Shown piece after piece: positions 14,129-14,644 of a DNA stretch of 64,000 nucleotides. The DNA lies in the NCBI RefSeq assembly GCF_024223415.1, contig NZ_CP100501.1. One strand, written 5' to 3'. Positions within the stretch are counted from its first letter, which is position 1. Every line of letters starts with the position of its first letter. The stretch is from Escherichia coli (GTDB taxonomy: Bacteria > Pseudomonadota > Gammaproteobacteria > Enterobacterales > Enterobacteriaceae). The position numbers were made by a program, and so were the translations under genes. The notes under the pieces are model-generated. The model saw only the letters and a list, made by a program, of their open reading frames with translations. It was not told where the DNA came from and did no database searches.

Positions 14129-14644
14129 ATGGGATTACTGGGCAGGATTAAACAACTGATAAGTGAAAATGAGAAACCGGCGGAAGTCACCCGCGTGATG
14201 GCACCGCTGTCCGGTGAAATTGTCCCTCTGGACACGGTTCCGGATGCTGTGTTTGCCGGGAAAATAGTGGGGGATGGTATTGCTATCCGTCCTTCCGGCG
14301 GCGATACCTTGGTGGCTCCTGTCAGCGGCACTATCGGTAAAATACTGGAGACAAACCACGCGTTTTCCATCCGCACCGACAGTGGCACTGAACTGTTCGT
14401 GCACTTCGGTATTAACACAGTTGACCTCAGGGGAGAGGGTTTCCGGCGTATTGCCCAGGAAGACCAGCTGATCAGCACCGGTGACCCCGTCATCGGGTTT
14501 GACCTTGCGTTACTTCAGAAGAAAGCACAGTCCACGCTGACACCGGTGATTGTGGCGGACTCTGACCGTGTCCAGGAGATAACCCTGTTCTCCGGCCCGG
14601 TCATCGCCGGAGAAACACCGGTTTTTGATATCAGCAGCCAGTAA
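14129..14644 (+). CDS. PTS EIIA-Glc (Crr) paralog
   Basis: Aligns along its length with remembered E. coli Crr (APLSGEIV..VFA.KIVGDGIAI..TNHAFSI..SG.ELFVHFGI.TV.L.GEGF); alternative ATG at 14114. Confidence 0.8.
   Translation: MGLLGRIKQLISENEKPAEVTRVMAPLSGEIVPLDTVPDAVFAGKIVGDGIAIRPSGGDTLVAPVSGTIGKILETNHAFSIRTDSGTELFVHFGINTVDLRGEGFRRIAQEDQLISTGDPVIGFDLALLQKKAQSTLTPVIVADSDRVQEITLFSGPVIAGETPVFDISSQ

Follow-up and report, generated by a model that had tools for sequence, protein, structure and literature searches.

The raf locus and its EIIA gene

The subject of this study is a gene for an EIIA-Glc-type protein of the phosphotransferase system (PTS) that is embedded in a raffinose (raf) locus of Escherichia coli, within a stretch of 64,000 nucleotides from contig NZ_CP100501.1 (the window; coordinates are window positions unless stated otherwise). 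The gene occupies positions 14129-14644 on the + strand and is intact, with an ATG at 14129 and a stop codon ending at 14644; it encodes 171 amino acids and is preceded by a Shine-Dalgarno sequence (AAGGA) 7 nt upstream of the ATG. An alternative in-frame ATG at 14114 is a less likely start, given that the alignment with Crr begins at MGL... and that the Prokaryotic Genome Annotation Pipeline (PGAP) also places the start at 14129. The evidence that this gene encodes a distinct, selected and raf-dedicated EIIA paralogue is solid, and its role, which we discuss after that evidence, can be proposed more tentatively.

Sequence comparison makes the protein a clear member of the EIIA-Glc family: it matches Pfam PF00358 (PTS_EIIA_1; E = 3.2e-42) over residues 22-147, covering model positions 2-126 of 127, scores 142 bits against TIGR00830 (cut-off 97.5), and can be aligned end to end with the solved E. 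coli and Vibrio EIIA-Glc chains (3OUR, 4JBW, 1GGR, 1F3G; E ~1e-62). An earlier note on this DNA had described a full-length Crr-like protein with both histidine motifs, encoded right after rafD, and had named lack of the phosphorylatable histidine on alignment as grounds for refutation. The description holds: both active-site histidines are present as His77 and His92, which in the numbering of mature E. coli IIA-Glc are His75 and His90. The distance from the rafD stop (14065) to the start of the gene is 63 nt.

Four raf genes precede the EIIA gene, all on the + strand. First comes rafR (8076-9086), called as an open reading frame (ORF) and by PGAP, which encodes a LacI-family repressor with 79% amino acid identity to RafR of the classical raf operon (pRSD2 type); it is followed by rafA (9180-11306), for an alpha-galactosidase of family GH36, which was assigned from the ORF, PGAP and comparison with the classical operon. 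The product of rafB (11361-12638) is a raffinose permease of the LacY family (TIGR00882, oligosaccharide transporter of the major facilitator superfamily (MFS), 679 bits; 89% identity to classical RafB), as the earlier note had supposed, and the LGAN motif in its central loop is preserved. The product of rafD (12635-14065) is a GH32 invertase with 84% identity to classical RafD, and by family it is a sucrose-6-phosphate hydrolase (NCBIfam scrB_fam, 445.9 bits).

Downstream of the EIIA gene the same strand continues with genes for a DUF2913 protein, a fructokinase and a porin, and the intergenic gaps from rafD to the porin gene are 63, 5, 29 and 99 nt. The EIIA gene had been placed ahead of the fructokinase and porin genes, and this order is correct, but a frameshifted DUF2913 gene (14650-15226) lies in between. 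It is split into ORFs 14650-14853 and 14915-15226, the conceptually fused product of which matches PF11140 (E = 7.5e-8); the second fragment, searched alone, gave no match. This gene is specific to the window lineage and is absent from the raf loci of Klebsiella michiganensis and Citrobacter braakii, which are introduced below. Among the E. coli records listed, PGAP annotates the split gene as two DUF2913 proteins.

The gene at 15256-16182 (+ strand) scores 477.4 bits against the fructokinase equivalog NF006957 (cut-off 450), and given its context it is most likely a ScrK/CscK-type fructokinase; PGAP names it "aminoimidazole riboside kinase" despite its passing that model. The last gene of the series (16282-17778, + strand) encodes a carbohydrate porin of the LamB/ScrY type, with a weak match to the maltoporin subfamily (125.7 bits) and an N-terminal extension that is rich in Ala, Glu and Gln and coiled-coil-like. 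It is not of the RafY (Porin_8) type; porins of that type belong to the classical raf locus and to those of K. michiganensis and C. braakii.

A separate clade confined to raf clusters

A search of 5.8 billion protein clusters with the EIIA protein returned its own cluster at 96-97% identity and then passed straight to matches at 54-66%. The latter are ordinary Crr proteins across the Gammaproteobacteria, with two exceptions, which are 170-amino-acid proteins from K. michiganensis and C. braakii; their genes follow immediately after a GH32 gene, and the clusters around them hold rafR, rafA, rafB and a gene for a RafY-type porin. When the same collection was searched with a profile made from the raf-linked sequences, five clusters representing three subtypes scored 306-339 bits and all other sequences scored 265 bits or less; an HMMER scan of 1.84 billion representatives revealed nothing closer to the raf-linked EIIA. 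A donor, or an intermediate between the three subtypes and true Crr, was considered, and none appeared in the single-sequence, profile or HMMER searches. The members of these clusters all come from Enterobacteriaceae, the known hosts being E. coli, Salmonella, Klebsiella and Citrobacter, and in all three subtypes the gene is found immediately downstream of a rafD-type GH32 gene in a cluster that holds rafR, rafA, rafB and a porin gene.

The three subtypes were monophyletic in 197 of 200 bootstraps of a neighbour-joining (NJ) tree and fell outside the clade formed by Crr of Enterobacterales, Vibrionales and Aeromonadales, with nesting inside a subset of Crr in 21 of the 200 replicates; the outgroups of this tree were diverse EIIA domains, and long-branch effects are possible. 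Identity between the raf-linked proteins and any Crr is 57-66%, as against 72-98% among Crr orthologues from Vibrio to Escherichia. The subtypes have in common the derived characters VMAPLSG, F(A/S)GKIV instead of FAEKIV, G(I)(N/S)TVDL instead of GIDTVEL, GFRR and TPVI(V/I), and a loop that is longer by one inserted residue. The nearest stand-alone EIIA outgroups (P0156, P0166 and P0169) stand in genomic contexts without GH32 or raf genes.

In public records PGAP names the gene "crr". The protein does pass the NCBIfam Crr equivalog NF006962, with 234.9 bits against a cut-off of 212; the three raf-linked subtypes score 225-239 bits on this model and Crr from E. coli, Vibrio and Aeromonas 300-311 bits, which places the subtypes 65-85 bits under real Crr. 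The label therefore rests on a marginal pass, by a narrow margin, and it hides the fact that the gene is a distinct paralogue. As a Crr orthologue the protein fails on phylogeny, on genomic context and on the Crr-specific positions described below, and narrowly passes the annotation model. We found no paper in a literature search that mentions the raf-linked EIIA gene.

The raf-linked EIIA thus is a small, old and separate clade that is confined to raf clusters, and not a recent copy of a host crr. The idea of a simple extra copy of crr, with which the earlier note had worked, needs revision: the clade is found with raf genes only and is long diverged, it has co-diverged with rafD under purifying selection, and it has changed positions that are fixed in Crr.

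Co-divergence with rafD and purifying selection

Amino acid identity between the window and K. michiganensis is 75% for RafA, 76% for RafB, 70% for RafD and 61% for EIIA, and between K. michiganensis and C. braakii it is 98%, 96%, 83% and 75%, respectively; by these values rafD and the EIIA gene have diverged together. In the latter two species the pair (6505-8513 in K. michiganensis and 6507-8513 in C. braakii, each in its own numbering) has a guanine-plus-cytosine (GC) content of 41-48%, compared with 54-62% for rafR, rafA and rafB, and its placement relative to rafRAB and the porin gene differs between the two. The distinct GC content and the greater divergence than that of rafA and rafB mark these clusters as mosaics, in which rafD and the EIIA gene recombine as a unit.

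The raf-linked EIIA gene is under purifying selection. The ratio of non-synonymous to synonymous substitution rates (dN/dS) comes to 0.13 for the K. michiganensis and C. braakii genes, and between the window gene and the other two the proportions of non-synonymous and synonymous differences (pN and pS) are 0.24-0.25 and 0.81-0.83, the synonymous sites being saturated. The gene is present in three of the four raf lineages that were found; the exception is the classical pRSD2 type, which plasmids carry more often than any other. Parsimony on the topology ((window, classical), (K. michiganensis, C. braakii)) would place the EIIA gene in the common raf ancestor, with a loss in the classical lineage.

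Residues kept and changed

Each of the near-universal residues D38, F41, H75, E86, H90 and V96 is conserved in at least 84% of a set of 135 diverse EIIA domains, and all six are present in the EIIA of the window and in both related subtypes. G47, A76 and S78 are likewise conserved in raf-linked EIIA, and these are positions at which mutations abolish inducer exclusion. The hydrophobic and basic periodicity of the membrane-anchor helix of Crr is kept at the N-terminus, with a hydrophobic moment (muH) of 0.37-0.50 compared with 0.47 in Crr, none of these values, that of Crr included, differing significantly from those of shuffled sequence. Inducer exclusion at the membrane requires the N-terminal helix of EIIA-Glc (PMC6906923).

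Differences from Crr were counted over the 108 columns of the alignment in which 125 Crr orthologues are fixed to 95% or more: one or more subtypes depart from Crr in 37 of these columns, and all three subtypes do so in 13. The common changes, in mature numbering, are V10I, I33L, E43G, a one-residue insertion, D94N/S, E97D, K132Q/V, V139I, N142D/E and M143S/T, together with changes of E145, K147 and K151. Most of these 13 positions are variable among sugar-specific EIIA domains generally. D94 of Crr contacts Arg17 of HPr. Diverse EIIA domains have an acidic residue (Asp or Glu) at this position in 84% of cases, Asn in 10% and Ser in 0%; the raf-linked subtypes have Asn or Ser. Against the background of the complexes that EIIA-Glc forms with HPr, IIB-Glc, GlpK and MalK, our own reading of this pattern is that the chemistry of phosphotransfer is probably intact and that the periphery, where partners would be recognized, has been reshaped.

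Putative operators, transcription and an intergenic hairpin

Motif comparison revealed twin 14-bp palindromes upstream of rafA, CCGAATCGTTTCGG and CCGAAACGATTCGG, with starts 21 bp apart (9108-9142, without strand assignment), as putative RafR operators. Twin palindromes of the CCGAAACGTTTCGG type are found upstream of rafA in all three EIIA-bearing lineages. In K. michiganensis, where rafD and the EIIA gene form a detached unit, the same twin palindromes occur again ~260 bp upstream of that unit, giving four matches in the locus (6224-6258 and 10665-10699 in its own numbering) where 0.04 would be expected by chance; in C. braakii there are twin palindromes upstream of rafA and a single copy upstream of rafD-EIIA (294-328 and 6281-6294 in its own numbering). 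Across these loci 0.04-0.07 matches would be expected by chance. Both the position and the twin arrangement match what is known of the RafR operators, and the palindromes probably are RafR operators.

No promoter-like site was predicted on the + strand of the window between rafA and the porin gene. Because the EIIA gene is on the same strand as rafD, 63 nt behind it, with no predicted promoter between and operator-like palindromes upstream, we infer that it belongs to the raf regulon and to the raf transcription unit behind the putative RafR operators.

The spacer between rafD and the EIIA gene contains a GC-rich hairpin with a 9-bp stem and a poor U tract (14075-14095, + strand; 69-nt spacer at -20 kcal/mol, z = -2.6). 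It may act as a weak attenuator or partial terminator, or as an mRNA-stabilising element, and may thereby set the level of EIIA relative to that of rafABD. The K. michiganensis and C. braakii lineages have not kept the hairpin sequence, and a conserved RNA element in this spacer was dropped as a candidate since the sequence differs across lineages. An Rfam scan of 7800-18100 gave a sub-threshold "mir-722" match, which is an artefact of the operator palindrome, and a match to chrB-b that is due to chance.

Distribution and replicons

The window matches pGF60-A, a conjugative plasmid of the IncI/K type from chicken meat, at 99.9-100% identity over the regions that were compared. The segment comprising the EIIA and DUF2913 genes was found at 99% identity or more in 246 of 5426 complete E. 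coli genomes (~4.5%), at 256 sites, 247 of them chromosomal and nine on plasmids; at least 80% of the 9.8-kb raf island is present in 184 complete E. coli genomes. The earlier description of the gene as a plasmid copy is accurate for pGF60-A, where it is near-identical, but does not extend to the species, in which the chromosome is the usual site. In PLSDB, eight plasmids carry the EIIA-bearing island as against ~190 with the classical raf operon, the DNA of which is ~80% identical to the window with a similarity that ends near the end of rafD.

The island lies between insertion sequence (IS) elements: an IS3-family element at ~6443-7650 on its left and, at ~18015-20075 on its right, a truncated IS1414 together with a second IS3-family element. 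The same island boundaries are seen on the chromosome of strain 165, and strain GF60 has the island both on its chromosome and on its plasmid. Past the IS elements, at ~20900-29000, the annotation of pGF60-A lists a cysteine hydrolase, DUF2877, fdrA, DUF1116, a carbamate kinase, a cytosine permease and a LysR regulator, which is a ylbE/fdrA/arcC-like module for catabolism of nitrogen compounds on a conjugative plasmid.

Among the matches listed, many of the best-matching records come from poultry. Poultry feed based on soy contains much raffinose and stachyose (PMC12987596), and the EIIA gene could therefore influence fitness in the gut. The same source, a 2026 genome-wide association study of E. 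coli from chickens, deals with raffinose genes and with a "rafY / sucrose porin precursor", which may be the island porin at 16282-17778, and does not discuss the EIIA gene.

Proposed role of the raf-linked EIIA

The role that we tentatively put first is that of a raffinose-induced, phosphorylatable PTS signal protein of the raf system, which by analogy would most likely act on RafB; we hold to it with reserve. The EIIA gene would be transcribed with rafD from RafR-controlled promoters, HPr would phosphorylate the protein on His92, as the conserved residues suggest, and the protein would associate with the membrane via its N-terminal amphipathic helix. Binding to a Raf protein, most probably the LacY-type RafB, would depend on the phosphorylation state, such that raffinose uptake would be tuned to the state of the PTS. 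The protein would in this way be a private, co-induced counterpart of inducer exclusion by Crr, and a trans-acting counterpart of the fused IIA of LacS and RafP.

That EIIA-Glc acts on LacY-type permeases had been assumed in the earlier note, and is in keeping with a report (Titgemeyer 1994, cited in PMC4996493) that, to go by its title, places classical RafB under regulation by IIA-Glc. The binding of IIA-Glc to LacY and to MelB has a 1:1 ratio (PMC8154325), and LacS and RafP have a fused IIA-Glc domain that is required for full transport, the domain of LacS being phosphorylated by HPr~P (PMC8154325, PMC2848229). The regulation of RafB, the binding by LacY and MelB and the fused domains of LacS and RafP together make a RafB-directed role plausible. 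As to the sign of the effect, the protein could be a brake that scales with the level of RafB, an activator, or a shield against the host Crr; a private copy could hold the ratio of regulator to permease constant, act orthogonally to the other targets of Crr, or shield RafB. A decoy function, or an alteration of glucose repression, is also possible as the role of EIIA.

Several observations weigh against this proposal. The classical pRSD2-type operon works without an EIIA gene, and because it does so the gene is not required for raffinose use; the cytoplasmic loops of RafB, compared between EIIA-bearing and EIIA-free loci, show no discriminating pattern. D94N/S might weaken docking of HPr. The gene always travels with rafD and not with rafB, with which a role related to rafD is equally compatible, and only three lineages exist, so that a single ancestral event could explain the linkage to raf.

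A wider generalization, which we offer as doubtful, is that mobile raffinose islands carry a private EIIA orthogonal to host Crr that sets the response of RafB to the PTS, as a shield or as a brake scaled to RafB. If it is true, a raffinose island carries its own rank in the sugar hierarchy into each new host.

An unlikely alternative is an auxiliary phosphocarrier that would pass phosphate from HPr to a host EIIBC without its own IIA (PtsG, TreB, MalX, or a plasmid or chromosomal ScrA), for example in the recapture of glucose or sucrose leaked during raffinose breakdown, or that would be left over from a sucrose-PTS ancestor of rafD. The pass on the Crr equivalog NF006962, the retention of all catalytic residues and of the N-terminal pattern of a membrane helix, the membership of RafD in the sucrose-6-phosphate hydrolase family and the scrK- and scrY-like genes adjoining the EIIA gene in the window all speak for it, but an EIIB or EIIC partner is missing from all of the islands: none is annotated in the parts of pGF60-A that match the window, and none was called in the raf loci of K. 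michiganensis and C. braakii. Plain EIIA activity would moreover be redundant with host crr, which all known hosts (E. coli, Salmonella, Klebsiella and Citrobacter) are expected to carry, yet purifying selection maintains the gene, and the protein has diverged from Crr at positions that are invariant in Crr.

The raf loci of K. michiganensis and C. braakii contain the EIIA gene but neither scrK- nor scrY-like genes, which speaks against a remnant of scrKY(A). A scrK-scrY-scrA block cut by IS1414 is ruled out as the source of the gene on the same ground, and because the sole ORF of at least 60 amino acids in the gap after the porin gene of the window is unremarkable (it was not searched against scrA). 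Among the 80 GH32 loci nearest to RafD in species-representative genomes, which are csc-type with a CscB-like permease and a fructokinase, none has an EIIA gene within 9 kb, which counts against the phosphocarrier among csc/scr-like loci and rules out GH32 plus EIIA as a general module. The classical raf locus, in which rafY follows directly after rafD, has no EIIA remnant at E <= 10.

The linkage with rafD could also be taken to mean that EIIA regulates an enzyme of the Raf pathway in the cytoplasm. It would bind the RafD invertase, or act at the kinase step, according to its phosphorylation state, much as Crr does with glycerol kinase, and would throttle the intracellular release of glucose and fructose. 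The adjacency to rafD is strict through three cluster arrangements, the two genes share their GC content and divergence, and in K. michiganensis and C. braakii they form a unit preceded by its own putative operator. This adjacency may, however, reflect no more than the unit of recombination; the retained N-terminal pattern of a membrane-binding helix suggests a partner at the membrane, and no case in which an EIIA controls a GH32 enzyme is known to us. We regard an enzyme target as quite improbable.

Very improbable, in our judgement, is a global booster of signalling, in which phospho-EIIA would activate adenylate cyclase or buffer the phosphorylation state of the PTS and so raise cyclic AMP (cAMP)-CRP and the expression of raf and other catabolic genes. 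Phospho-Crr stimulates adenylate cyclase, the raf operon is CRP-dependent, and the protein is an EIIA-Glc family member with a phosphorylatable histidine; but with Crr-invariant surface positions changed it is unlikely to have kept every partner of Crr, and a global effect leaves the exclusive linkage to raf clusters unexplained.

Most improbable of all is a neutral passenger carried with rafD and without selected function in its current hosts, which would fit the working of the classical operon without the gene, the decay of the neighbouring DUF2913 gene to a pseudogene and the E. coli copies, all at least 99% identical and so little informative on selection within E. coli, but not an ORF that is intact in three lineages with saturated synonymous sites, a dN/dS of 0.13 and catalytic residues that are all kept.

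Comparison with known systems

With E. coli Crr/EIIA-Glc (PDB 1F3G, 1GGR, 1O2F, 1GLA and 4JBW) the raf-linked EIIA shares its fold family, its length class, the histidines, D38, F41, E86 and V96, and the N-terminal pattern of an amphipathic basic helix; it differs in being 57-66% identical, in forming a clade of its own, and in 13 changed features that are invariant in Crr. Their settings differ as well: the raf-linked gene lies in an IS-bounded sugar island that is probably under RafR control, between rafD and a DUF2913 pseudogene, and not in the ptsHI-crr operon (ptsH-ptsI-crr), which is the genomic context of Crr.

LacS of Streptococcus thermophilus and RafP of lactic acid bacteria offer an analogy to the proposed RafB-directed role, in that there, too, an EIIA-Glc-type module would serve a non-PTS carrier of galactosides or raffinose. 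Their IIA domain is C-terminal and is fused in cis to a carrier of the GPH family, whereas the EIIA of the window is a separate protein of 171 amino acids beside RafB, a LacY-family member of the MFS, and RafB ends at 12638 without a IIA domain. The sequence relation between the IIA of LacS and RafP and the raf-linked EIIA is at family level only.

The scr regulon (scrK-scrY-scrA-scrB-scrR, of pUR400 and Klebsiella) has a fructokinase, a glycoporin and a GH32 hydrolase in common with the window locus. ScrA, an EIIBC, depends on EIIA-Glc. The scr regulon has scrA, whereas neither scrA nor any other EIIBC gene is annotated for the island in the window, and EIIA is also found in raf loci that are without scrK- and scrY-like genes.

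The classical raf operon of pRSD2 has the same order, rafRABD, with 79-89% amino acid identity to the window, and differs in what follows rafD: rafY and no EIIA gene in pRSD2, and the EIIA gene, the DUF2913 pseudogene, the fructokinase gene and the gene for the LamB/ScrY-type porin in the window. Studies of the raf operon go back to the 1980s and have dealt with the one lineage that lacks the EIIA gene. In the textbook account, inducer exclusion by EIIA-Glc is global control of the sugar hierarchy through one chromosomal protein; a second EIIA-Glc that is embedded in an operon, is probably induced by the substrate and has accompanied the raffinose genes over a long divergence suggests that sugar islands acquired by horizontal transfer may come with a PTS connection of their own, or with a means of insulation against the PTS, and the EIIA-free classical raf operon offers a natural comparison of raffinose systems with and without the gene.

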